Assembly: GCA_903882905.1 (NCBI GenBank)
Contig: CAIRYW010000019.1
Location: 1,406-65,405 of the forward strand
From: an uncultured bacterium
GTDB lineage: Bacteria > Patescibacteriota > Minisyncoccia > Phycocordibacterales > CAIRYW01
Length of the DNA: 64,000 nucleotides
Reading direction: 5' to 3'
This document shows, one piece after another, positions 1,986-27,666 of the stretch. The position numbers and the translations under genes are program-made. How positions within the stretch are numbered: position 1 is the first letter of the stretch; the number at the start of each line of letters is the position of its first letter. The notes under the pieces are model-generated. The model saw only the letters and a program-made list of their open reading frames with translations, did no database searches and was not told where the DNA came from.

Positions 1986-3101
1986 ATGAATGATTTTATT
2001 AAGAATTTATTTAATTTTAACAAGACAGATACAAATGTGATAGGGATTGATATAGGATCTTCTTCTATCAAGATTGTTCAACTTGCTAAATCAAAAGGCA
2101 AAGCAATTTTAAAGACTTATGGAAGTCTTGCTATTGGTCCATATGCTGGAGTTACGATCGGCCAAGCGGCGGTTCTCCCTGGAGAAAAATTGAGCGAGAT
2201 AATAATTGATTTAATGAAAGAAGCAAATGTTAATACAACAAATGCTGGTGTGGCTATTCCACTTCGTTCGAGTTTGGTTTCTTTAATAGAAATGCCGAAC
2301 CTCTCGCAAAGTGAACTTCAAAAAATGGTTCCACTTGAAGCAAGAAAATATATTCCAGTACCAATAAGTGAAGTAACTATGGATTGGTGGGTTATTCCAA
2401 AAGATGAGACAAGAACTTTTTCTTCACCTCAGACTGCACCAATGATTAAGGCAGATAAAGCCGAAGTATTAGTTGTTTCTATTCATAATGAAGTTTTAAA
2501 TAATTACACTTCAATAATAAAAAATGCTGGTCTGTCCACAAGTTTTTTTGAAATTGAAATGTTTGCAACGATCAGATCTCTTATAGAACATGAACTTAGC
2601 CCTGTGATGATTTTTGACATGGGAGCTTCTGCAACAAAACTTTATCTTGTTGAAAGAGGAGTCGTTAAACAGTCACACATCATTAACAGAGGTTCACAAG
2701 ATATCACAATCGCTCTTTCTCAAGGACTTCAAGTTTCAATGGAAAAAGCTGAAAAAATAAAAAGAAGTATCGGGACACTTACAAAAGAAGAAGAGAAAAA
2801 TATTTATGATATTTCTGAGCTCACCATGGATTATATTTTTTCAGAGGCTGGAAGTGTTTTACTTGCTTTTGAGAAAAAAAACCACAAGAGTGTTTCGAGA
2901 GTGTATTTGACCGGAGGAGGAATTCTAATGAAAGGTTTTCTTGATATTGCAAAATCAAAGTTTCAAACAGACGTTGTAATAGGGGATCCTTTTACAAAAA
3001 TAGAGGTTCCAGCTTTTCTTTCGGAGATTCTTAAGGAAAGCGGATTAGATTTCGCTGTAGCTACAGGACTTGCTTTACGTAAGTTACAGGAATTTTTGTA
3101 G
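1986..3101 (+). CDS. pilM: Type IV pilus assembly protein PilM
   Basis: Actin-like IGIDIGSSSIKIV, EARKYIP, FDMGAS and YLTGGG; first gene of the pil cluster. Confidence 0.9.
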   Translation: MNDFIKNLFNFNKTDTNVIGIDIGSSSIKIVQLAKSKGKAILKTYGSLAIGPYAGVTIGQAAVLPGEKLSEIIIDLMKEANVNTTNAGVAIPLRSSLVSLIEMPNLSQSELQKMVPLEARKYIPVPISEVTMDWWVIPKDETRTFSSPQTAPMIKADKAEVLVVSIHNEVLNNYTSIIKNAGLSTSFFEIEMFATIRSLIEHELSPVMIFDMGASATKLYLVERGVVKQSHIINRGSQDITIALSQGLQVSMEKAEKIKRSIGTLTKEEEKNIYDISELTMDYIFSEAGSVLLAFEKKNHKSVSRVYLTGGGILMKGFLDIAKSKFQTDVVIGDPFTKIEVPAFLSEILKESGLDFAVATGLALRKLQEFL

Positions 3102-3107
3102 GAGGAA

Positions 3108-3391
3108 CCCAGCACCTTTTTATGCACTATGTGTATGTAATACAAAGCATTATTGATAAAAGTTTATATTTTGGCATTACTAATGATCTAAGCCGTCGCC
3201 TGTTAGAGCATAATGATAAGAAAAATTTTTCCACGAGTTATAAAGGTCCATGGAGGTATGTGTACATTGAAGGATATTTAAGTAGGAAAGATGCTGCTTT
3301 GAGAGAAAAAATTTTTAAGCATTACGGTAATGCACGGACTTATGTTAAACGTCGATTGAAAAATAGTTTAAGTGCATAAGAAGGTGCTGGG
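3108..3391. mobile_element. CCCAGCAC-family inverted-repeat element carrying a GIY-YIG nuclease gene
   Basis: cccagcacctt (3108-3118) and aaggtgctggg (3381-3391) tightly enclose ORF 3122-3379, between pilM and pilN. Confidence 0.7.
3122..3379 (+). CDS. Small GIY-YIG nuclease family protein
   Basis: YVYVIQS...LYFGITNDLSRRLLEHN...ALRE. Confidence 0.85.
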   Translation: MHYVYVIQSIIDKSLYFGITNDLSRRLLEHNDKKNFSTSYKGPWRYVYIEGYLSRKDAALREKIFKHYGNARTYVKRRLKNSLSA

Positions 3392-3462
3392 AAAAGATAT
3401 TAACACCATTCTCACTTTAGGCATTCGCATATTTTTCTAATAAGCGCTAAAATATAAGTAAG

Positions 3463-4185
3463 ATGGAAACAAAGTTTCAAAATACATTTATACCAAAATC
3501 AGCTCTTGATACTCCAAGTATTACTCCTAATAGACAAGCGAACTTTTTGACTTTTGTTTCAATGATTATTTTTCTTTTGAGTTGTGTTTTGGCGGGTGGT
3601 GTATTTCTTTGGGGACAGTATCTTGCAGGTCAGGTGAGTTCACTAAATCAAAGTCTAGAAATAAATAAAAATGCTTTTGAACCAGGCACGATTGAACAAT
3701 ATTCTAGATTAAATAGTCGATTCGATAGTGCAAGAGGTCTTCTATCAAGTCATGTCGCAGCTTCTGCATTCTTTGATTTGCTCAACAAAGATACTTTGAA
3801 AACAATTCAATTTTCAGATTTGAAGTATTCACAAGACGGAAGCGGCCTTATTTCTATCAAAATGTCTGGTAAAGCAAAGTCATATAACTCAGTTGCTTAT
3901 CAAGCCAAAATTTTTTCAAACGAAGTAGCTTTCAAGAACGCAGTATTTTCAAATCTAGATCTTGATCAGTCTGGAAATGTGATTTTTGAATTTGATACAC
4001 AAGTTAATCCAAGTCTCGTAACCTATCAAAATAATATTGCAGCCTATAAAAATCTTTCAAATAATGTACCTCAGACTTTAAGTATTCCAGATCAAAATTC
4101 AGTTTCAAGCAGTAGTAGCGTAGGAGGTTTATCTTTTCCACCAGTAACGTCTACAAGTTCAAATGTTAAATCTATAAAAAAATAA
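3463..4185 (+). CDS. PilN-like pilus assembly protein
   Basis: N-terminal TM plus coiled coil plus ferredoxin-like pattern; sits between pilM and pilO. Confidence 0.65.
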   Translation: METKFQNTFIPKSALDTPSITPNRQANFLTFVSMIIFLLSCVLAGGVFLWGQYLAGQVSSLNQSLEINKNAFEPGTIEQYSRLNSRFDSARGLLSSHVAASAFFDLLNKDTLKTIQFSDLKYSQDGSGLISIKMSGKAKSYNSVAYQAKIFSNEVAFKNAVFSNLDLDQSGNVIFEFDTQVNPSLVTYQNNIAAYKNLSNNVPQTLSIPDQNSVSSSSSVGGLSFPPVTSTSSNVKSIKK

Positions 4186-4743
4186 ATGAAAGCAACAATT
4201 TTTCCAATATTATTAATAGCCGGTGCAATAGGACTTTTTGTCTTAGTAACAAATCCTCAGTATCAAGCGGCCAAAGATGTACAGACTCAAGTAGGTAGTC
4301 TAAGTGAAGCTTTGGGTAAGTCCGAGCAAATTCTTGCAAAAAGATCCGAATTACAAATACAATATAATAATTTTTCTTCCAAAGATATTACCTCGATTGA
4401 CAAACTTCTTCCTGACAATGTCGATAACGTCCAATTGGTACTTGATATGAATGGAATCGCAAGAAATCATGGTATGGTTCTTAGAAATATAAAAATTCAG
4501 GATCAGGGCGGTTCTGGAAACGCTAGTGCGCAAGGAACTCAAGCTTTAGGTCCAAATAATAGTCCAGTTGGCTCTTTGTCGCTCTCTTTTGATGTAACAG
4601 GAGATTACCAAAGCTTCACAGGTTTTCTAAAGGATTTGGAACAAAGTCTTAGGATCGTTGATGTTACTGGAATTAGTTTTAAATCGACAGATAAGGGTAT
4701 CTACGATTATGTAGTAAATATAAAAACCTATTGGTTAAAATAA
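4186..4743 (+). CDS. pilO: Type IV pilus assembly protein PilO
   Basis: TM, LLPD, GDYQSFTGFLKDLEQSLRIVDV. Confidence 0.8.
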   Translation: MKATIFPILLIAGAIGLFVLVTNPQYQAAKDVQTQVGSLSEALGKSEQILAKRSELQIQYNNFSSKDITSIDKLLPDNVDNVQLVLDMNGIARNHGMVLRNIKIQDQGGSGNASAQGTQALGPNNSPVGSLSLSFDVTGDYQSFTGFLKDLEQSLRIVDVTGISFKSTDKGIYDYVVNIKTYWLK

Positions 4744-4746
4744 AAT

Positions 4747-5157
4747 ATGAAAGATTTATACGAAAAATTTAAATTACCAATCATTATCATAGCCCTCTTG
4801 GGTTTGGCTTTTGTTTTTTACAACATGTTTTTTAAAACTACAGCCGACTCCTCTGCACTTGTTAGTAATCCTGTTTCAGGTAACTCTGTTTCTGCAGATT
4901 TTTTGCCACTCCTACTTAAAATTCAGGATATCAAATTTGATCAAGGTTTTTTTGCAAATAGTACATACACTTCACTTAAAGATTTTGGTCAAACAATAAT
5001 TACTGAAGATAAACAAAGGAATGATCCATTTTCTCCTGTCTCTGGAGTAAATGTTTCTTCTTCTACTGTCGAAGGTTTAGGATTTACTGTGCAAACTGTT
5101 ACAGGAACATCAACTACTTCTTCTTCAAATTCTACAGCAACAGTTAAGACTAAATAA
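4747..5157 (+). CDS. Membrane-anchored pilus-cluster protein (PilP position)
   Basis: N-terminal TM, RNDPF motif, Ser/Thr-rich tail; gene order. Confidence 0.5.
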   Translation: MKDLYEKFKLPIIIIALLGLAFVFYNMFFKTTADSSALVSNPVSGNSVSADFLPLLLKIQDIKFDQGFFANSTYTSLKDFGQTIITEDKQRNDPFSPVSGVNVSSSTVEGLGFTVQTVTGTSTTSSSNSTATVKTK

Positions 5158-5160
5158 AAT

Positions 5161-6882
5161 ATGGATTTAATTACGATTCTTTCAAAAAAAGGAGTACTTT
5201 CTTCTGGAGATGCTGATAGAGCAAGATCTGAATCAAAATCCCCAGAGGATATCGAGGAGATTTTGAAATCATATGGTATCAGCAAAACTGATATTCTTTC
5301 TGCAAAAGGAGAAGAGATGAACATTCCTACAAAAGAGATTGAAAATCCAAATATACCGATGGAGACGCTTAAGTATATTCCAGAGGATTCTGCTAATTAC
5401 TATCAAGTTATTCCACTCGGTTTAAATAAGGGTGCCCTTGAAGTTGGGATTGTTGATCCGGAAAATATAGAGGCTAGAGATGCTATAAGCTTTATTGCTT
5501 CAAAAAATAACGTTCCTTATAAAATATTTTTAATTTCTAAAGAAGATTTTGATAAAGGAATACTTGCTTACAAAGGACTTTCTGGAGAAGTGACCAGAGC
5601 TCTTTCTGAACTGGAAGAAGACCTTACCGACGAAGAGAAGGAAATGATCAGTCTTAAAGATGAAAATATAAACAGAAAGATCAATTCTGTGAATATTATC
5701 GAGGATGCGCCGGTAAAAAAAATAGTTGCGACGATTTTACGATACGCTATTGAAGGTGAGGCTTCTGATGTCCACATAGAACCAATGGTTGATAAGGTCA
5801 GAGTACGTTTTAGACTCGATGGAGCATTGCATACATCACTTATTTTGCCTATAAAAGTATTAAATACTGTAGTAGCGAGAATAAAAATTCTTTCGGATAT
5901 GAAACTTGATGAAAAAAGAAAACCACAAGATGGTCGTTTTAGTGCACGTATAGATGGCAGAAAAATTGATTTTCGTGTTTCAACTTTCCCAACTTACTAT
6001 GGAGAAAAAGTGGTTATGAGAATTCTTGACCAAGCTAAGGGGGTTAAACCCCTTGATGATCTGGATATTTCAGAGAGGGATTTAAAAATGATTAAAGAGG
6101 CTATACACAAACCATACGGATTGATTTTAATTTCTGGTCCTACGGGTTCTGGAAAGACAACTACTCTATATTCTATGCTTGGTGAAGTTGATAAAGAATC
6201 AAACAATGTACTCTCACTTGAAGATCCTGTTGAATACAACGTAGAAGGAATGAGTCAATCACAAATCAGACCTGAGATCGATTATACTTTTGCTAACGGA
6301 CTTAGAACTACTCTGAGACAAGACCCAGATATTATTATGGTGGGAGAAATTAGAGATAAAGAAACTGCTGCTCTTGCGATTCAAGCAGCACTTACAGGAC
6401 ACCTTGTGTTCTCAACTATTCACACAAATGATGCAATCGGGGTAATACCAAGATTGGTAGATATGGGTGTTGATCCGTACCTTATTGCTCCAACCTTGAT
6501 TTTATCAATGGCCCAAAGATTAGTCGCAAAAATTGCTCCAGGAGGAGGAAAAGAAATGCCAATAGAAGGAAGTATTCAAGTCATGATAGATAAACAATTT
6601 GTAGATTTACCTGAAGAATTTAAGAGTTCAATTCCAAAAGGAAATACTGTAGTTGAGGCGATCCCTACGAGCGAGTTTCCAAAAGGTACTCACGGAAGAA
6701 TAGGTGTGTTTGAAGTCTTTAAGATGGATAGGGAATTAGAAAATATTATTCTCACAAATCCAATAGAGACGGAAATTTGGAAAGTTGTTAGAAAACAAGG
6801 AATGTTTACTATGAAAGAAAACGCTATTGTTAAAGCCATAAAGCATGAAATTCCTTTTGAAGAAATAAGTGGTCTTGCTTAA
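5161..6882 (+). CDS. pilB: Pilus extension ATPase PilB (GspE/PulE family)
   Basis: ASDVHIEP, PQDGRF, GPTGSGKTTT, EDPVEY, LRQDPDIIMVGEIRD. Confidence 0.95.
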   Translation: MDLITILSKKGVLSSGDADRARSESKSPEDIEEILKSYGISKTDILSAKGEEMNIPTKEIENPNIPMETLKYIPEDSANYYQVIPLGLNKGALEVGIVDPENIEARDAISFIASKNNVPYKIFLISKEDFDKGILAYKGLSGEVTRALSELEEDLTDEEKEMISLKDENINRKINSVNIIEDAPVKKIVATILRYAIEGEASDVHIEPMVDKVRVRFRLDGALHTSLILPIKVLNTVVARIKILSDMKLDEKRKPQDGRFSARIDGRKIDFRVSTFPTYYGEKVVMRILDQAKGVKPLDDLDISERDLKMIKEAIHKPYGLILISGPTGSGKTTTLYSMLGEVDKESNNVLSLEDPVEYNVEGMSQSQIRPEIDYTFANGLRTTLRQDPDIIMVGEIRDKETAALAIQAALTGHLVFSTIHTNDAIGVIPRLVDMGVDPYLIAPTLILSMAQRLVAKIAPGGGKEMPIEGSIQVMIDKQFVDLPEEFKSSIPKGNTVVEAIPTSEFPKGTHGRIGVFEVFKMDRELENIILTNPIETEIWKVVRKQGMFTMKENAIVKAIKHEIPFEEISGLA

Positions 6883-6950
6883 AAAATGTTACAATAATGC
6901 TAAAGATTACTGGTTAGGAATTTAAAAAGTAAATTTTAAATTAAAAAAAC

Positions 6951-7343
6951 ATGGAAGAGGATAAAAACAAAAAAAAATTCAGTGTAGTATTGGTTGACGA
7001 CGACAAATTCCTTTTGAATATGTATGCGATGAAATTTACGAAAGAAGGTTATGGTATTACCGCTTTTCAATCTTCAGAAGAAGCATTAGAAAAATTTAGA
7101 CTAGGACTTAGTCCAGACGTAGTTCTTTTGGATGTTGTAATGCCTGGTATGGATGGACTTTCTTTGTTAAAAATATTACGTGATGAAAAACTTATACTAA
7201 ACTCAGCTGTTGTCATACTTTCAAATCAAGGAGCTCAAAGCGATATAGATAATGCAAAGGCCTTAAAAATTGATGGATATATTGTGAAAGCAACAACTAT
7301 TCCATCAGAAGTTTTGAGAGAAGTCTCTAGAATTGTCGAATAA
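6951..7343 (+). CDS. Single-domain response regulator receiver
   Basis: LVDDD, LLDVVMPGMDG, YIVK. Confidence 0.9.
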   Translation: MEEDKNKKKFSVVLVDDDKFLLNMYAMKFTKEGYGITAFQSSEEALEKFRLGLSPDVVLLDVVMPGMDGLSLLKILRDEKLILNSAVVILSNQGAQSDIDNAKALKIDGYIVKATTIPSEVLREVSRIVE

Positions 7344-7369
7344 AAAAAAGCAAATAATTTATAAAAAAT

Positions 7370-8431
7370 ATGGATTACGACAAAGAAATCAAAGAATTAC
7401 TCGAAACTGTCATAAGAGAGGGAGCGTCCGATTTACATATTTCAGAAAAAAGACACCCAACTATTAGGGTTTCAGGTAATTTAATTCCGCTTGTGAAAAA
7501 AGAAGCATTTTCAACACAAGATACCAGAGGAATACTTCGAAAATTGGTTAAACCAGAACTTGAAGATGCTTTTGAAAAAAATAAAGAAATAGATTTTTCA
7601 TATGAATTTGAAGGAAAAGCACGTTTTAGAGGAAATGCTTTTTTCCAACAAGGGCATATTTCAATTGCCCTACGATTAATTCCTAAAATAATTCAATCCC
7701 TTGAAGAATTAAAACTTCCAGCAATTTTGGGTGATTTTGCAAAGAAGAAGCAGGGATTCTTTTTGGTTGTTGGTCCCGTTGGGCAAGGAAAGACTACAAC
7801 TCTTGCCTCGATGGTTGAATTAATAAACCAAGAAAGAGCCGAACACATTGTGACAATTGAAGATCCTATCGAATATGCTTATGATCAAAAAAAATCAATC
7901 ATCGATCAGCGCGAAGTAAGAATTGATACAAAAGATTTTCACTCTGCTCTTATTTCAACTCTCAGAGAAGATATGAATGTGATCATGGTAGGAGAGATGA
8001 GAGACCCTGAGACAATGTCAGCTGCTGTAACAGCGGCAGAAACAGGTCACTTGGTATTTTCTACACTACATACAAATAATGCCGCTCAGACTATTGATAG
8101 AATTATTGACTCATTTCCTCCAGGACAGCAGGAACAAATTAGAATTCAACTTGCGGGATCTCTCATTGGAGTATTTTCACAAAGACTTATTCCTAGAATT
8201 TCAGGTGGAAGAATTCCTGCTTATGAATTAATGATTGCGAATGATGCAGTAGCAAACTTGATTCGTGAAAAAAGAGTTCATGAAATTGATACTGTAATTG
8301 AGACAAGCTCAGAGCAGGGAATGATTGATATGAATAGATGTTTGGCTGATTTGGTGCGTGCTGGGGAAATCACAATCGAAAATGCTTATAAGTTTGCATT
8401 TAAACCAAAGTCGCTTGAGAAGATGTTGTAG
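7370..8431 (+). CDS. pilT: Pilus retraction ATPase PilT
   Basis: ASDLH, GPVGQGKTTT, EDPIEY, GEMRD, AAETGHLVFSTLHT, AVANLIRE. Confidence 0.95.
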   Translation: MDYDKEIKELLETVIREGASDLHISEKRHPTIRVSGNLIPLVKKEAFSTQDTRGILRKLVKPELEDAFEKNKEIDFSYEFEGKARFRGNAFFQQGHISIALRLIPKIIQSLEELKLPAILGDFAKKKQGFFLVVGPVGQGKTTTLASMVELINQERAEHIVTIEDPIEYAYDQKKSIIDQREVRIDTKDFHSALISTLREDMNVIMVGEMRDPETMSAAVTAAETGHLVFSTLHTNNAAQTIDRIIDSFPPGQQEQIRIQLAGSLIGVFSQRLIPRISGGRIPAYELMIANDAVANLIREKRVHEIDTVIETSSEQGMIDMNRCLADLVRAGEITIENAYKFAFKPKSLEKML

Positions 8432-8464
8432 AAATTAAGGAGCAAAGCGACTATAATTTCAAAA

Positions 8465-8590
8465 CCCAGTACTAACTTTTCGGAACAATTTAAAAAAAAT
8501 GAGAATTAATAAATTACATAACATATTGAAAATAAAAATCAGTCAGACGACTGATTTTTGTGGTAAATTATCAGAAAAGTTAGTGCTGGG
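8465..8590. repeat. CCCAGCAC-family inverted-repeat element (non-coding)
   Basis: cccagtactaacttttc (8465-8481) and gaaaagttagtgctggg (8574-8590), with an internal hairpin aaaaatcagtc-agac-gactgattttt. Confidence 0.75.
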
Positions 8591-8630
8591 TGGCGATTTT
8601 AATACTCGCTTCACTCGTTAAAAATCAGCC

Positions 8631-9830
8631 ATGCTCTTCAACTACAAAGCCATAGATCCAAAAGGTACTCAAATAAGCGGATCAGTAGATGCCGTTTCTA
8701 CTGATAGTGCTATTTCCTCAATTCAAAAAAGAGGACTTGTAATTGTTAGTATCAATGAAGCAAAAAAAGGATTTAATCAGACTTTCAGTTTTTTAAACCG
8801 AGTAAAAAATAAAGATATAGTTATCCTTTCAAGACAAATTGCCACTCTTTTCACCGCTCAAGTTTCAGCTCTTAGAGTCTTTAGAATGCTTTCTGACCAA
8901 ACAGATAATCCAGCACTTGGTGTAGTGCTTGTTGAAGTTGCAAGTGATTTGCAAGGGGGAACCTCTATATCAAAAGCTCTATCAAAACATCCAAAAGTTT
9001 TTTCAAATTTCTATGTAAATATGGTTAAAGCAGGGGAGGAGTCTGGGAAACTTGATCTTACTTTTACATACTTGGCAGATTATCTAGATAGAAATTTTGC
9101 AGTAACATCAAAAGCAAAAAATGCTCTGATTTATCCAGCTTTCGTAATTTTTACTTTTATTGTTGTTATGGCTGTGATGTTTACAGTTGTTATCCCTCAG
9201 ATAACTTCGATTATTACTGATGCTGGTCAAGCTATTCCTTTATCTACTCAAATAGTTATCGGTATTAGTAATTTCCTGAGAGATTACGGAATATTTTTAG
9301 TTATTGCAATATTAATTGCAGGTTTTTTTGTTATCAAATACAGCAGAACCGAAAAAGGTTCTTACGCCTTATCCGAATTTCAGTTGCTAGTTCCATATGT
9401 TGGGACTTTATATAAAAAACTTTATCTTTCAAGAATTGCAGATAATATGAACACCTTACTTACTTCTGGAGTACCTATGGTCCGTGCACTTGAACTTACA
9501 GCAGATGTTGTTGATAACAGGGTTTATCAAACGATTCTTCTTGCTTCATTAGAAGCCGTGAAAGCTGGTAGCACTCTTTCTGATGCTTTTTCAAAATATG
9601 AGCAAATTCCGGGGATTATTGTTCAAATGGTAAAAGTTGGAGAGGAGACAGGGGAACTCGGAAAAATTTTGGAAACTTTAGCAAAGTTTTACGAAAGAGA
9701 GGTAGTAAATGCTGTTGATACTCTTGTTGATTTAATTGAACCTGTCATGATTGTTGTGTTAGGTTTGGGTGTCGCCTTTTTGCTTGTTTCTGTGCTTATG
9801 CCTATCTACAACTTGTCCTCGTCAATTTAA
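8631..9830 (+). CDS. pilC: Type IV pilus platform protein PilC (T2SSF family)
   Basis: MVKAGEESGKLD, ALIYP, MVKVGEETGEL, LIEP. Confidence 0.95.
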   Translation: MLFNYKAIDPKGTQISGSVDAVSTDSAISSIQKRGLVIVSINEAKKGFNQTFSFLNRVKNKDIVILSRQIATLFTAQVSALRVFRMLSDQTDNPALGVVLVEVASDLQGGTSISKALSKHPKVFSNFYVNMVKAGEESGKLDLTFTYLADYLDRNFAVTSKAKNALIYPAFVIFTFIVVMAVMFTVVIPQITSIITDAGQAIPLSTQIVIGISNFLRDYGIFLVIAILIAGFFVIKYSRTEKGSYALSEFQLLVPYVGTLYKKLYLSRIADNMNTLLTSGVPMVRALELTADVVDNRVYQTILLASLEAVKAGSTLSDAFSKYEQIPGIIVQMVKVGEETGELGKILETLAKFYEREVVNAVDTLVDLIEPVMIVVLGLGVAFLLVSVLMPIYNLSSSI

Positions 9831-9852
9831 GGAGAAAAAACTTAGAGGCTTA

Positions 9853-9907
9853 AAAACCTGCGAGGCTAAGCCTCAAGGATTTTAAGAGGCTTAGCCTCGC
9901 AGGTTTT
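9853..9907. repeat. 22-bp inverted repeat made of two AGG-N5-CCT mini-palindromes (REP-like)
   Basis: aaaacctgcgaggctaagcctc and gaggcttagcctcgcaggtttt. Confidence 0.75.
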
Positions 9908-9921
9908 CACTACAAAATTTG

Positions 9922-9961
9922 CCCAGCACCTTCTTTTGCTGCAGCAAAAGAAGGTGCTGGG
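9922..9961. repeat. Perfect 40-bp palindrome; minimal CCCAGCAC-family element
   Basis: cccagcaccttcttttgctg|cagcaaaagaaggtgctggg. Confidence 0.85.
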
Positions 9962-10127
9962 TTTTCCACACCCTATTTTTTTTAAAAAGTATTTAATGTA
10001 TAATTACAGGACAATTAAAAACAAATTCGCTCGGGTCGAATCGAGCAGAAATTAATTTAAAAGTTATTAGCGTGCCCTCTCAAGTTTTTTGAAGAAAAAT
10101 TTGTTAGGGTTATAAATTACTAAAAAA

Positions 10128-10496
10128 ATGAATAAACAAAAAGGTTTTACACTGATCGAACTTTTGGTTGTTATTGCAATCATTGGTATTTTGTCTGCAG
10201 TTGTTCTTACATCATTGACTGGAGCAAGAACGAAGGCTCAAACAGCAGCATATAAAGCAGAACTAGCTGGTTTGCAACCTGCATTGATTAGCGATTGTGA
10301 TACTGGAGCTTTAACAACTGGTGCTGGTGATTTAATTGCGAATGGTCAACATTCTCTTGGAACCGTAAGTGCTCAGACTTGTGCTACAAATGGAGGAACA
10401 TTTACTGTTGGTTTCACTGTCGGTACGGGTAAATCAGGAGGTACTTGTACAGCTGGCCAGATAACAGATTCTGCTGTAACGTTTACTGGTTGTTAA
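10128..10496 (+). CDS. Type IV pilin (probable major pilin)
   Basis: KG|FTLIELLVVIAIIGIL; has its own upstream TATAAT and a downstream terminator. Confidence 0.9.
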   Translation: MNKQKGFTLIELLVVIAIIGILSAVVLTSLTGARTKAQTAAYKAELAGLQPALISDCDTGALTTGAGDLIANGQHSLGTVSAQTCATNGGTFTVGFTVGTGKSGGTCTAGQITDSAVTFTGC

Positions 10497-10524
10497 AAGA
10501 AGATCTAAGACTCACTACATAAGT

Positions 10525-10563
10525 AAAAAAACAGAATTCCTTAATTGGAGTTCTGTTTTTTTT
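10525..10563 (+). terminator. Intrinsic terminator after the first pilin
   Basis: acagaattcc-ttaatt-ggagttctgt followed by a T-run. Confidence 0.75.
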
Positions 10564-10616
10564 GAGTTGATTATATTCCTAAAAAAGTTGTATAATCTAT
10601 ATATAAATATATTAAA

Positions 10617-11030
10617 ATGAATAAACAAAAAGGTTTTACACTTATCGAACTTTTGGTTGTTATCGCAATCATTGGTATTTTGTCTGCAGTTGTTCTTACA
10701 TCATTGACTAGTGCGAGAACAAAAGCAAGGAGGGGGGCTGCTATTTCGACTATGCAAGGTATTATGCATGAATTCTTAATTTGTGATATTGATGGTGGAT
10801 ATGGTCTAACAACTGCAATCACTGCTGGTACATCATATGTCTGTGTAAGTGCATCAGGAGGCACAACTGCCATGGCTGGTCATACAATCACTTGGCCAAG
10901 CATAGCAAACACTGGTTATGCTTATGCAACTCCTGCAGGTCTTCTTTCTGCTGGAACATATCAATATACTGCAACTATTTCTGGTGGACCCACAATTACA
11001 TGTACTCCCTCGACAAACGTCTGTAGTTAA
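10617..11030 (+). CDS. Type IV pilin
   Basis: KG|FTLIE class III signal; C-terminal Cys pair. Confidence 0.9.
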   Translation: MNKQKGFTLIELLVVIAIIGILSAVVLTSLTSARTKARRGAAISTMQGIMHEFLICDIDGGYGLTTAITAGTSYVCVSASGGTTAMAGHTITWPSIANTGYAYATPAGLLSAGTYQYTATISGGPTITCTPSTNVCS

Positions 11031-11120
11031 AATTGTCTGGATAAAATTTACAGTCCTATTAAAATAAAATAATTGTCCTCGATCACTATAATTAATATTT
11101 TTTCGTGTTAAAATATTTAC

Positions 11121-11486
11121 ATGAAAAAAGGTTTTACACTTATCGAACTTTTAGTTGTTATTGCAATAATTGGTATTTTGTCTTCTGTGGTTCTTACGTC
11201 TTTGAATGGTGCGAGAGACAAAGCAAAAATTTCTGCTTTCAAGTCTGAACTTTCTTCTCTTCAGTCTGGGTTGGTAAGTATTTGTGATTCTAGAGATATT
11301 GATGTTGCAACTGATACTCCAGCAATTGGTGCCCATAGCGCAGCTGATATTGCGAGTTTTGCACAAAGTTGTGCCGATGACACCGACCCGGTTTATACAT
11401 TTAGTGTTACATTCACTCCAACAAATGGTGCTGCCTGCACTGATGGGACTATCACTGATTCTACTACTACGTACACTGGTTGCTAA
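11121..11486 (+). CDS. Type IV pilin (paralog of 10128)
   Basis: MKKG|FTLIE; C-terminus TYTGC. Confidence 0.9.
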   Translation: MKKGFTLIELLVVIAIIGILSSVVLTSLNGARDKAKISAFKSELSSLQSGLVSICDSRDIDVATDTPAIGAHSAADIASFAQSCADDTDPVYTFSVTFTPTNGAACTDGTITDSTTTYTGC

Positions 11487-11536
11487 TAAAAATAGTTTTA
11501 TAGTACTTGTTGGTGATACTAAGTGATTTTCAAAAT

Positions 11537-12019
11537 ATGAAAAAAGGTTTTACCCAGCACCAAGTTTTCACAAAACAAGAGTTAATCAAGCGTAAGTTTT
11601 CTATTAGAAAACTTAGTGCTGGGTTTACACTTATCGAACTTTTAGTTGTTATTGCAATAATTGGTATTTTGTCTTCTGTGGTTCTTACGTCTCTAAGTGG
11701 GGCACAAGATAAAGCTAGAAAAGCTGCGGTGATTTCAAGCTTGCAGAGTATTATGCACGAACTTACAATGTGTGATATTGATGGTGGTTTTGGTAGAACG
11801 GAAAACCCTATAGTAGCTGGCGATTATATATGTGTCACTCCAAGTGGAACTGTTAATACTCCTATGACAAATCATACGGCTACTTGGCCAAACATTACAG
11901 GTATTGGTGGTACATATGGGAGTGCTAGGAATGCATTTTCAACTGGAACCTATTCTTATATAGCGACAGTTAATGGTGCAACCATAACTTGTACTTACTC
12001 AACCCAAGTTTGTAGTTAA
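11537..12019 (+). CDS. Type IV pilin (paralog of 10617) with a 25-codon insertion in the leader
   Basis: MKKGFT[QHQVF...KLSAGFT]LIELL; ATG 11537. Confidence 0.9.
   Translation: MKKGFTQHQVFTKQELIKRKFSIRKLSAGFTLIELLVVIAIIGILSSVVLTSLSGAQDKARKAAVISSLQSIMHELTMCDIDGGFGRTENPIVAGDYICVTPSGTVNTPMTNHTATWPNITGIGGTYGSARNAFSTGTYSYIATVNGATITCTYSTQVCS
11553..11623. mobile_element. CCCAGCAC-family MITE inserted in frame in a pilin leader, with TTTA target-site duplication
   Basis: 17-bp IR cccagcaccaagttttc / gaaaacttagtgctggg; TTTA at 11549-11552 and 11624-11627; the empty site is visible in paralog 11121. Confidence 0.85.
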
Positions 12020-12056
12020 AAACTTTTAGTATAGATAATTGTGTTAAAATGTTCTT

Positions 12057-12509
12057 ATGGAAAAAGGATTTTCATTAATGGAACTCATGGTTGCTGTTGC
12101 GGTCATCGGTATTTTGACTGCTGTGGTTATTCCTTCATATTTGTCTTCAAAAGCAAGGTCTAGAGATGCTATTCGTCTCGGAGACTTAAAGAGTATTTCT
12201 TTGGCTATACAAAATTCTTGGCAAGAAAGTGGTTATACAACTTGGCCACAAAGTTTATCCGATATTTCCTCATATTTTAATGGCGTAATACCCACTGATC
12301 CGTCTGATCATTCACAATATTTATATACTCCCTATAGTCTTGATAGGGCAACTCAGATTGGCAATGATCCAAGTACTCAGAAAAAAGATTTTTGTCTTGG
12401 AACGAAAATGGAAGTAATATCGGCAACAACTACTTGCAATATGCAGGATGCTTATGCCCAAGGTAAAAGTTATCCAACTGGTTACAATTATACTTATGTA
12501 GGGCCGTAG
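12057..12509 (+). CDS. Pilin/pseudopilin (GspG-like)
   Basis: KG|FSLMELMV, ARSRDAIRLGDL, IPTDP. Confidence 0.85.
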   Translation: MEKGFSLMELMVAVAVIGILTAVVIPSYLSSKARSRDAIRLGDLKSISLAIQNSWQESGYTTWPQSLSDISSYFNGVIPTDPSDHSQYLYTPYSLDRATQIGNDPSTQKKDFCLGTKMEVISATTTCNMQDAYAQGKSYPTGYNYTYVGP

Positions 12510-12534
12510 TTTTTCATTATGTTATAATTTACAT

Positions 12535-13356
12535 ATGTTTTATTATCTTTCAGCAGTAATTTTTGTTGTCGGTACGATTATTGGCAGTTTTCTTAATGTC
12601 GTCGCTCTTAGAATCAATACTGGTAAGGGCTTAATGGGTAGGTCTTTTTGCATGTCTTGTGGAAAGACAATAAAATCATATGATCTTTTTCCTATCTTGA
12701 GTTTTCTATCTCTGGGTGGAAAATCCCGTTGTTGCAAGACAAAAATTTCTTGGCAGTATCCTTTGGTTGAATTTATCACAGGACTAATTTTTCTTTCAGT
12801 TTTTTTAAAGTTTTATAGTCTTGCATACGTTCCAGTTTTGGTTCCAACTTTTTGGTATTTAGCTTTTTGTATTTTGATTGTTATCACGATTTATGATGTA
12901 AGACATCAGATTATTCCAGATTTTCTTTCATATACTTTTGCATTTTTATCTGTTTTATATTTTGTTGGAGATAAAAGTCTTACAAGTATTTTTTCTTATC
13001 CAGAAATTTTAAATTTTTTGGCTGGCCCAATTATTTTTGCTGTGTTCTCTTTGGTTTGGTTTGTTTCAAAAGGGAGATGGATTGGTTTTGGAGATGGAAA
13101 ACTAGCCCTTGGAATGGGGTTTGCATTAGGATTTTCAGAAGCTCTTTCGGCAATTGCTTTTGCCTTTTGGATCGGGGCAATCTGGAGTATTTTTATACTA
13201 CTTTTTCAAAAACTTGGTATTGCAAAAAGTAAATTTAATTTTAAGAGCGCTGTGCCGTTTGCACCATTTATGATTGCGGGATTTCTTTTGGCTTTTATTT
13301 TGAGCGCTGATGTTTTTAGTTTAAATATGTTAATTTTTGGCCCAGCACCTTTTTAA
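12535..13356 (+). CDS. pilD: Prepilin peptidase (A24)
   Basis: GSFLNV, RSFCMSC, YD...IIPD, GFGDGKL, VPFAPF. Confidence 0.92.
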   Translation: MFYYLSAVIFVVGTIIGSFLNVVALRINTGKGLMGRSFCMSCGKTIKSYDLFPILSFLSLGGKSRCCKTKISWQYPLVEFITGLIFLSVFLKFYSLAYVPVLVPTFWYLAFCILIVITIYDVRHQIIPDFLSYTFAFLSVLYFVGDKSLTSIFSYPEILNFLAGPIIFAVFSLVWFVSKGRWIGFGDGKLALGMGFALGFSEALSAIAFAFWIGAIWSIFILLFQKLGIAKSKFNFKSAVPFAPFMIAGFLLAFILSADVFSLNMLIFGPAPF

Positions 13357-13440
13357 TTTGTTAAAATCATGAGTTTAATTAAAATAATAAAAAAATATTT
13401 TTCAAAAAAAAATCTTAATGAAGTACAAAAAGGTGCTGGG
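13341..13440. mobile_element. CCCAGCAC-family element spanning the pilD stop and the next pilin's start and leader
   Basis: Perfect 14-bp IR cccagcaccttttt / aaaaaggtgctggg. Confidence 0.75.
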
Positions 13441-14076
13441 TTCACCCTCGTCGAAATGATGGTGGTCGTGGCTATTGTAATTGTCATGACTTCTATTTTG
13501 CTTTTGAAACAATCAAAGTTTTCAAGTGATATTTTGGTTACAAACGCTGCTTACGAAGTAGCCCTCTCAATCCGAGAAGCTCAAGTTTATGGTATTAGTT
13601 CCAAACAAACTTCCACAAATTTAAATGTTGGATATGGAATATATTTAGACAATTCATCCACAAATTCTTTTACTATTTATTCTGATGGCGGCTATTCTAG
13701 TAGTAATACATATAATTACACTTTTAATTACGGAGATACTGGCGAATCTTATGTTTCAATAGAAAATCCTCAACTTACACAAGGTCAGACAATAAAAAAA
13801 ATTTGCGTTGCTTCGACAATGAATAATATTAGTTGTTCTGATACTGATTCAACGCTCACAAAACTTAATATAGGTTTTATAAAGCCAAACCCTGAAGCTT
13901 TAATATATAAAAATGGTACTACTGGTACATCAAATAGGCTAAATGAAGCTTTTATAGTCGTTGCATCTGTTCTTGGAGATAAATGTAGAGTCGTCCGAAT
14001 AACTTCTATTGGACAAATATCAGTTGATACTCCTCGTCCTCTAGGTGACGAATGTACCGCTTTACCAACATTATGA
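13369..14076 (+). CDS. Minor pilin (FimT/GspH-like)
   Basis: KGAG|FTLVEMMVVVAI. Confidence 0.85.
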   Translation: MSLIKIIKKYFSKKNLNEVQKGAGFTLVEMMVVVAIVIVMTSILLLKQSKFSSDILVTNAAYEVALSIREAQVYGISSKQTSTNLNVGYGIYLDNSSTNSFTIYSDGGYSSSNTYNYTFNYGDTGESYVSIENPQLTQGQTIKKICVASTMNNISCSDTDSTLTKLNIGFIKPNPEALIYKNGTTGTSNRLNEAFIVVASVLGDKCRVVRITSIGQISVDTPRPLGDECTALPTL

Positions 14077-14639
14077 TAATAAAAAAAATAAAACAAAAAA
14101 ATATTGATGGTTTTACACTTATCGAATTAATGGTTTCTGTTAGTATTTTCGCTATTGTCGTTTTGGTTTCTATAACTGCAATCCTTGCAATTGTTGAAGC
14201 AAATAAAAAAGCTCAAGCTTTGGATGACGTAATAAACAATATGAATTTTAGTGTTGAAAGTATGGTAAGAGATTTAAGGACAGGCTATAACTATACTTGT
14301 TATATAAATGGAAGTTATGGAGCTTGTCCTTCTAATTCGGCAGTAAGCTCGATTACTTTTTTTTCTAGTATCTCTGGTTGTAATGTTACATATCATTTGG
14401 CTAGTAATGCGATTTATAAAAATATTTCATGTAACGGCGGAACTGACATGTCTCTTACTCCAAGTAATATTAATGTCAGTCGGTTTGATCTTTATGTTTC
14501 AAACCCTGCTTATGTTGCTCCTAATTACACACAACCAATTATTCTTATGGTTCTTCAAGCTAAAGCAAGTGTAGGAAAGCAATCAACTGAATTTGATTTG
14601 CAAACTTTAATTTCACAAAGGAGATTAAATATCCAATAA
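14073..14639 (+). CDS. Minor pilin (PilW/GspJ-like)
   Basis: DG|FTLIELMVSVSIF, MVRDLRTG; ATGA overlap with the previous gene. Confidence 0.85.
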   Translation: MIIKKIKQKNIDGFTLIELMVSVSIFAIVVLVSITAILAIVEANKKAQALDDVINNMNFSVESMVRDLRTGYNYTCYINGSYGACPSNSAVSSITFFSSISGCNVTYHLASNAIYKNISCNGGTDMSLTPSNINVSRFDLYVSNPAYVAPNYTQPIILMVLQAKASVGKQSTEFDLQTLISQRRLNIQ

Positions 14640-14645
14640 TATGAA

Positions 14646-14743
14646 CCCAGCACCTTTATCTTTTCAAAATCATGAACTTCATAAATAAAACAAAAAAATA
14701 TTTTTTAAAGAAAAATTTATACAAAGCACATAAAGGTGCTGGG
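14646..14743. mobile_element. CCCAGCAC-family element supplying the start codon and leader of a minor pilin
   Basis: cccagcacctttat / ataaaggtgctggg; interior homologous to 13341-13440. Confidence 0.75.
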
Positions 14744-15292
14744 TTCACATTAATTGAAACTATGGTTGCAATTACCATCCTTCTTGTAACTATTGTTGGA
14801 CCGATGGAGATCGCTTCGAAAGCTTTATTTTCTGCTTTTTATGCTAGAGATCAAATAACTGCATATTATTTAGCACAAGAGGGTATAGAGTCTTTAAGAA
14901 ACTTCAGAGATGTTTATTATTTAAATGGCTTTACTGGTTGGCCTTCTTTTGTGACAGATTGTTCATATGACGGGATAAGTAAGTATGGGTGTAAAGTTGG
15001 TGCTTCTAGTGGTGCGAATCCTGTTTATAGTGTATTAAAATGTACTGCTAAATGTGATACACCTAGTGATGCCCTATATTACAATAGTGGGAATGGTATA
15101 TATTCTTATATTACTGATTCTGGTAATACCAAATCAAAATATACTAGATTAGTGAAAGTTACCCCAGATGCAACAAATCCTAATGATGCCGCGCTCGTTG
15201 AATCGACAGTTTATTGGACAGGAAGTTATCTATCGAGCGGTACAAAATCTTTTACAATAAAAGAAATGCTTTATAACTGGCAGACGAAATAA
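14672..15292 (+). CDS. Minor pilin (PilV-like)
   Basis: KGAG|FTLIETMVAI, AYYLAQEGIE. Confidence 0.85.
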   Translation: MNFINKTKKYFLKKNLYKAHKGAGFTLIETMVAITILLVTIVGPMEIASKALFSAFYARDQITAYYLAQEGIESLRNFRDVYYLNGFTGWPSFVTDCSYDGISKYGCKVGASSGANPVYSVLKCTAKCDTPSDALYYNSGNGIYSYITDSGNTKSKYTRLVKVTPDATNPNDAALVESTVYWTGSYLSSGTKSFTIKEMLYNWQTK

Positions 15293-27561: not shown

Positions 27562-27666
27562 GCCCAGCACATAGTTTTTCTGATTTCGTGCCATGTTGGT
27601 CTAATTTTGATATAATTAATACACATTGAGTTTTAATTTTCTACCCAGAAAAACTATGTGCTGGGC
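27562..27666. repeat. CCCAGCAC-family element upstream of ftsE
   Basis: Perfect 21-bp IR gcccagcacatagtttttctg / cagaaaaactatgtgctgggc; encloses TGATATAAT. Confidence 0.8.

Follow-up and report, generated by a model that had tools for sequence, protein, structure and literature searches.

A 71-bp insert in a type IV prepilin gene of the window (the whole stretch of 64,000 nucleotides that was analysed) is probably a nuclease-less short copy of inverted-repeat elements of about 280-330 bp, which would be driven by a GIY-YIG nuclease, prefer TTNA-type targets, and be kept by selection where their end rebuilds a 5′ edge with a disposable upstream part. Judged from the sequences compared, the occurrence of such inserts at pilin junctions is real, recurrent, and under frame selection, and the GIY-YIG element family is likely mobile. 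Coordinates in the window are listed in Table 1.

The first 16 nt of gene 11537 were common to its paralog 11121; the 71 bp and a second TTTA then intervened, and past the boundary of this second TTTA the gene rejoined the paralog (70 of 71 nt matched). This comparison agreed with an earlier note on this DNA, which had described a 71-bp inverted-repeat insert with a TTTA duplication, in frame and stop-free. The 71 bp plus TTTA made up 75 bp (25 codons), without an in-frame ATG, GTG, or TTG; since these 75 nt contain neither a stop nor an in-frame start, the leader of 11537 has 29 residues and ends in Ala-Gly before FTLIE. The rebuilding of A-G|F-T-L-I-E at the right end, also claimed there, was confirmed, and the paralog and congener pilins were without the insert. 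Without 32 extra bases that follow its left 8-mer, the element would be a perfect hairpin of 39 bp, and none of 200 shuffles folded as well, either as RNA (-28.5 kcal/mol, z -4.45) or as DNA (-16.5, z -5.30).

Both Pfam N_methyl (PF07963, 25-50) and TIGR02532 (28-50) were placed, above cut-off, at the second G|F of 11537. The first G|F persists, but is followed by polar residues and no hydrophobic tract. As in a class III signal peptide, the 29-aa leader is basic, ends in Gly29, and precedes FTLIE and a hydrophobic run. Because the terminal GGG of the element re-encodes Gly(-1), the 25 foreign residues would likely be lost with the leader when prepilin peptidase cuts; removal from the pilin would thus be a trimming by the peptidase, not splicing. 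The comparison with an intron at the protein level, drawn in the earlier note, does not hold in that the native MKKG is discarded with the insert and nothing is rejoined. According to the available text of a review, prepilins are cleaved after Gly on the cytoplasmic side by a peptidase that is promiscuous and tolerates non-canonical leaders, and leaders have 6-26 aa (PMC4471445); the 29-aa leader of 11537 slightly exceeds this range, and nuclease-fused leaders (see below) reach ~90-110 aa.

The window holds a type IV pilus gene cluster comprising a pilin array, with four tandem major-type pilins (10128-12019), and an A24 prepilin peptidase. Gene 11537 resembled 11121 in its 5′ DNA and was nearer to 10617 in its C-terminal part (59% protein identity), and recombination between paralogs is suggested as the origin of this mosaic. 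The main pilins of three congeners carry short K-K-G|F leaders, and their orthologous pilins were empty, except for three in congener G001, where a second, different arm family occupies three pilin junctions, all in frame. Six DNA sequencing runs and no RNA run were listed as containing this DNA; in four of them, taken as contigs, no joint across the element was found among the joints listed, and no strain-level footprint was obtained.

Table 1. Features of the window discussed in the text.
Feature	Position	Strand	Remarks
Full-length member, 284 bp	3108..3391	+	Terminal arms as in the 11553 element, enclosing 85-aa GIY-YIG gene 3122-3379; candidate autonomous element
126-bp intergenic copy, slightly degenerate	8465..8590	.	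Between pilT-like and pilC-like genes
40-bp intergenic perfect hairpin	9922..9961	.	Upstream of pilin array
Paralogous pilin with empty site	11121..11486	+	
Type IV prepilin gene	11537..12019	+	160 aa; 29-aa leader, 25 residues insert-derived; predicted cut after Gly29
Left TTTA copy	11549..11552	+	4-nt duplication (old Phe-Thr codons)
71-bp nuclease-less element	11553..11623	.	17-bp terminal arms, 16/17 complementary
Right TTTA copy	11624..11627	+	First mature-pilin codons
Prepilin peptidase (A24)	12535..13356	+	Both Asp-containing motifs present; adjoins pilin array
100-bp copy	13341..13440	.	Extends to G|F of pilin-like 13369 and contains its start codon
98-bp copy	14646..14743	.	Extends to G|F of pilin-like 14672 and contains its start codon; homologous to 13341 copy in its interior
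103-bp intergenic copy	27563..27665	.	

The insert belongs to a CCCAGCAC…GTGCTGGG family with 16 copies in this 746-kb genome (G000), in which 38 CCCAGCAC sites paired as 14 exact and 2 degenerate copies. Most are hairpins of 37-43 bp, and 6 of the 16 lie in the pilus region (window 3100-14750). A pilin G|F marks the end of four copies: those at 11553, 13341, and 14646, and a fourth on contig C27. By a rough masking of ORFs, eleven others are mainly intergenic; the remaining copy is in frame within another protein. The gene enclosed by the copy at 3108, which was absent from the earlier note, contains PF01541 (E 1.1e-13) as its sole Pfam domain. A duplication was found neither at this cassette nor at the 13341 and 14646 copies; the left arm at 13341 extends into the final codons of the peptidase gene, and there is no TTTA on its left. 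Two more GIY-YIG genes of the genome are each bracketed by their own, different arms. In this genome, 4 of 13 pilin-type GGN-TTY-A(C/G) sites (one of the 13 probably not being a pilin) followed an element end, compared with 0 of 274 in other coding and 0 of 41 in non-coding DNA.

Inspected by eye, four copies are followed directly by a -35-like TTGAC, itself normally spaced from a -10-like box; the copies preceding -35-like boxes are at C21:20513, C24:741, C27:27809, and C10:47419 of G000, one with a TTGA duplication. A 38-bp hairpin (G000 C24:22730-22767) also keeps the frame, close to the C-terminal end of a long ORF that is not a pilin, and would therefore be kept in the protein. Several other palindrome families, among them TCCCGTTAGA-, ACCCTGTTA-, AAGGACCG-, and ACTTGGAG-ended ones, occur genome-wide in G000, and a 130-bp CCCGCACT palindrome family has one copy near the start of the window (about 1108-1237); some of these other families match the arms of nuclease cassettes elsewhere. 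Derivation of the 71-bp interior from the nuclease gene of the window was rejected, since beyond the arms no similarity above shuffles was found; L147 and L150, by contrast, are such remnants. attC sites and DNA uptake sequences have required cores. A reading as either was dropped because the flanks were without these cores and only 38 motif sites occur in 746 kb.

Homologs of the nuclease gave 646 matches in 258 of the 401 genomes of the class. From these matches, the best 69 non-own loci were taken, and one at a contig end was dropped. Inverted repeats bracketed 57 of the 68 nucleases (shuffle maximum 10 against a cut-off of 13), giving 54 distinct cassettes after removal of three duplicates, and the nuclease was the only gene in the cassettes examined. 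Direct repeats of at least 4 nt flanked 28 of the 54 (null mean 1.7, maximum 7), and none of this length was found in the other 26. The repeat changed with the insertion site (TTGA/TTGA, TTTA/TTTA, TGAA/TGAA) and is therefore target-derived; the reading of TTTA as part of the element, which arose from one-sided YTNA flanks in 31 of 77 short hairpins, was accordingly rejected for full-length cassettes. Duplication length depended on the family (from 4 to about 7-9 nt). Of the landing sites, twelve were tRNA 5′ ends, about ten start codons, and one a pilin junction; in all three types of site, the element end supplied the first bases of the target motif. The earlier idea of pilin leaders as a special haven cannot be kept in this form: insertions were also found at -35-like boxes, start codons, and tRNA 5′ ends, and at one site within a protein.

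At the tRNA 5′ ends (L288, L289, L302, L305, L311, L314, L320, L331, L332, L338, L340, and L344), duplications were longer and the first G bases came from the element end; as a parallel at the RNA level, we infer that trimming of the pre-tRNA leader would remove the upstream part. A 321-bp GIY-YIG cassette (283/321 identical) is shared by this genome (G000 contig C10 2349-2104) and congener G001 (locus L487); the two genes at whose start codons it lies are unrelated, and its last base rebuilds the ATG. L262 and L325 are insertions at the first codons of a gene that, judged from a motif, is presumably thymidylate-kinase-like, with TTYA on both sides. Mapped on the nuclease tree, five arm families required 9 changes against 24.9 when shuffled (0 of 200 as low), in a tree of 87 columns with many open forks and with near-copies that inflate the clustering of arm families. 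The nuclease of the window grouped (99/96) with two same-arm nucleases of other host families. Small GIY-YIG genes that are more distantly related occur in other phyla (L038, L039, L041, L044, and L045), in alternation with tRNA-like direct repeats and not with inverted arms. Neither the nuclease nor the short hairpin had a match in the near-complete congener G002; at the site of the nuclease cassette, the flanking genes of G002 aligned on both sides of a shorter gap, their divergence precluding a base-level footprint. A PDB sequence search with the nuclease returned only two UPF0213 proteins, and no NCBIfam model scored above cut-off.

Short hairpins were found at about 199 sites in 103 of the 401 genomes, and 77 that had not been selected for pilins were analysed. 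None of the 77 was at a pilin junction, and an exact 4-nt duplication was present in only three. YTNA stood 5′ of one arm in 31 of them (null 6.3) and was duplicated in only 3 of the 31.

Pilin junctions were searched with a pattern consisting of the element end and FTLxE, in the 401 genomes and in a partial metagenome scan. There were 25 matches in 21 of the 401 genomes (none with a reversed control) and 124 loci in the metagenome scan; the distinct matches numbered 139, 128 of them pilin-like. These samples are pattern-selected, and kin among them are not independent. The excess of upstream complementary arms that the earlier note had predicted was found: among the 127 pilin ends with at least 200 nt upstream, 64 had an arm scoring at least 9, against 1 of 127 after shuffling. 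Among the non-own matches exactly at G|F, only 10 of 22 had arms with this score. In the 401 genomes, the element end lay exactly at G|F in 25 matches and 1-30 nt further upstream in 5, the former count being raised because the Gly codon belongs to the search pattern; one of the five has arms and, by eye, itself rebuilds G|F. The same note had suggested inserts as a possible origin of long xxGAGFTLIE leaders, and they account for many long xxGAG- and SAG-FT leaders, with half of the GAG/SAG-FT ends having no detectable arm.

The left TTYA was present in 56 of the 64 armed pilin inserts (consensus GGN-TTY-A), and its left and right copies were identical in 46 of the 56 and differed at the third base in 10. 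The predicted preference for lengths in multiples of three was also borne out: 38 of 56 inserts, or 31 of 47 after clustering of similar interiors, were in frame. For unselected hairpins, with which the clustered count was compared, the figure was 22 of 77 (Fisher p 7e-5). For inserts of 50-200 nt, the pilin frame was open throughout in 26 of 29, and the other sense frames in 2 and 6. An ATG-led open frame ran into the pilin in 50 of 56 cases, and two of the six without it are at contig ends. Out-of-frame inserts persist too, mostly via an internal ATG; in L053, L067, L069, and L047, a stop lies near or overlaps this ATG, which suggests translational restart. Net charge was at least 0 in all 29 in-frame insert peptides. 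Nested and tandem inserts, in which the rebuilt junction was reused, also occur, and in three loci (L099, L152, and L349), a whole GIY-YIG nuclease, in frame with the pilin, precedes G|F and forms the prepilin leader. Among unselected pilins, the event was uncommon: 1 of 56 pilin starts (29 loci of relatives).

In the mechanism that we propose, the sole gene of the ~280-330-bp elements, the 85-residue GIY-YIG nuclease, would move them, recognising their hairpin ends and, in the target, a short TTNA-type sequence. The target duplication would result from staggered nicks repaired by the host, and the only insertions kept by selection would be those at the 5′ edge of a feature whose upstream part is disposable: a prepilin leader, pre-tRNA leader, start codon, or -35 box. 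Pilin junctions, which match the motif and tolerate the insert, would therefore be doubly favoured. More tentatively, and with slightly less than even confidence, the elements may constitute a new class of bacterial insertion sequences of less than 300 bp, whose sole protein, an 85-aa GIY-YIG nuclease, would serve as transposase. In each subfamily, the end sequence and the target duplication would together restore a conserved motif at its 5′ edge, be it a start codon, a -35 box, a tRNA 5′ end, or the Gly-Phe of prepilins, so that host processing erases the damage, and pilin fusions would release free cytoplasmic nuclease via the host peptidase. We know of no strand-transfer activity in an 85-aa single-domain nuclease.

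Terminal inverted repeats and short target duplications are the usual footprint of DDE transposases. The arms and short duplications described here resemble it, and the one-sided pyrimidine-T-N-A of 31 of the 77 hairpins, seldom duplicated, recalls REP/IS200-type flanks. The element may thus be a MITE that depends for its movement on an unrelated transposase of DDE or HUH (Y1/RAYT) type acting in trans, with the GIY-YIG gene as cargo or a selfish maintenance nuclease. However, the arm family tracks the nuclease tree across host families, cassettes carry no gene but the nuclease, and the duplications are of family-dependent length (4 to about 7-9 nt), and we consider this explanation unlikely. 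Gene conversion (homing) between paralogs, triggered by the nuclease and using the conserved N-terminal coding DNA, may have spread the inserts among pilins without fresh transposition. Near-identical elements in two or three pilin genes per contig (L191, L137/L138, L052/L069, and G001), the 69 identical nt after G|F common to 11121 and 11537, and the use of GIY-YIG domains by homing endonucleases, as given in the available text of PMC11893778, are in its favour. On the other hand, the left flanks of near-identical copies differ up to the Gly codon, and neither the duplications at tRNAs, start codons, and promoters nor one cassette at two unrelated genes need paralogy. As a full account, homing is quite unlikely; in addition to transposition, it may occur.

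It is very improbable that gene 11537 is simply a disabled duplicate with an in-frame length by luck. A single insert is in frame by chance in one of three cases, a hairpin of -28 kcal/mol begins 16 nt after the ATG, and three other major-type pilins exist, but the mature part of 133 aa is intact and the bias in frame and stops is family-wide. The least probable alternative, to which we give hardly any weight, is that the hairpins are host-domesticated signals for regulation or recombination (comparable to Ssn/NTS of Neisseria and acting in the expression or variation of pilins), retained as useful. It has in its favour the 6 of 16 copies in the pilus region, the four adjoining -35-like boxes, and the modulation of transformation by Ssn/NTS reported in the available part of PMC11893778; it is opposed by patchy occupancy, with orthologous pilins of congeners empty or bearing another arm family, and by the lack of a nuclease or short-hairpin match in the near-complete congener G002.

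The preferred reading, movement by the GIY-YIG nuclease with retention at rebuilt 5′ edges, would account for a common oddity of pilin leaders in small-genome bacteria, and would show abundant mobile DNA in streamlined, gene-dense genomes (nuclease homologs in 258 and short hairpins in 103 of 401). If it is true that an 85-aa nuclease moves the element, its transposition chemistry is undescribed in the literature searched and the autonomous unit is very small. Pilin leaders and start sites are at risk of mis-annotation at such inserts. The GIY-YIG mini-element family is apparently widespread and undescribed: our literature search, made mainly in open papers, found no description of it.

Several known systems are similar in part. 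Like a MITE, the 71-bp copy is short, has terminal inverted repeats (16/17), and contains no transposase gene; the TTTA duplication at 11537 with its empty paralog is also MITE-like, and family-wide this likeness is partial (28 of 54 full-length cassettes, 3 of 77 short hairpins). The 16 copies in this genome share their ends, with interiors that differ, save for 13341/14646, and so lack the conserved interior of a MITE. The element sharing ends with the 71-bp copy encodes a GIY-YIG protein. IS200/IS605 elements are not known to make target duplications. In REP/BIME with RAYT, the partner is HUH; here it is GIY-YIG, and full-length copies often have duplications. These systems and IS200/IS605 otherwise resemble the present family in combining hairpin repeats with a small nuclease-type protein and in the preferred tetramer 5′ of the hairpin (PMC11893778, available text). 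Rickettsia palindromic elements are also short, non-autonomous palindromes, often in frame in genes; their peptides stay in the protein, whereas the favoured site here is predicted to be cut away (PMC10969869, available text). From both these elements and MITEs, the family differs in its candidate autonomous partner, a GIY-YIG gene and not a transposase; GIY is unmentioned in the available text of that review of prokaryotic MITEs (PMC10969869). Inteins and self-splicing introns share site-preferring insertion and an intact final product, but here there is no splicing or ligation, and removal would need N-terminal or 5′ trimming by the host; the 25-residue insert has no Pfam splicing domain, and the flank upstream of it belongs to the leader and would be discarded with it.

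The closest likeness is to Ssn, nucleases that cut single-stranded DNA sequence-specifically (cd10448, with NTS/SRM hairpins), also encoded by a small single-domain GIY-YIG gene with palindromic repeats that flank it and occur solo. Here, however, the left and right arms form one long inverted repeat around the gene, with target duplications and another arm sequence, and the family does not have the self-contained SRM hairpins of 20-50 nt with an NTS-like core. The nuclease of the window scored 31.9 bits on a profile of one NTS-adjacent nuclease (three other NTS-adjacent ones: 109-112) and 119.8 on that of its own family; conversely, four NTS-adjacent nucleases, from 135 viral-contig loci, scored 45-60 bits on the family profile, on which members scored 109-136, and one placed in the tree fell outside the family. 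By this proxy, in which NTS-adjacent nucleases stood in for SsnA, the nuclease would lie outside the Ssn clade cd10448; its own family may correspond to cd10449 (SLX1-like). NTS-ssnA-NTS has itself been likened to a mobile element (Chenal et al. 2025, PMC11893778), in a paper whose main text does not mention Patescibacteria or CPR. Given the placement by proxy outside the Ssn clade and the differing architecture, we therefore regard the present family as one that would work like Ssn, and do not file it as Ssn.
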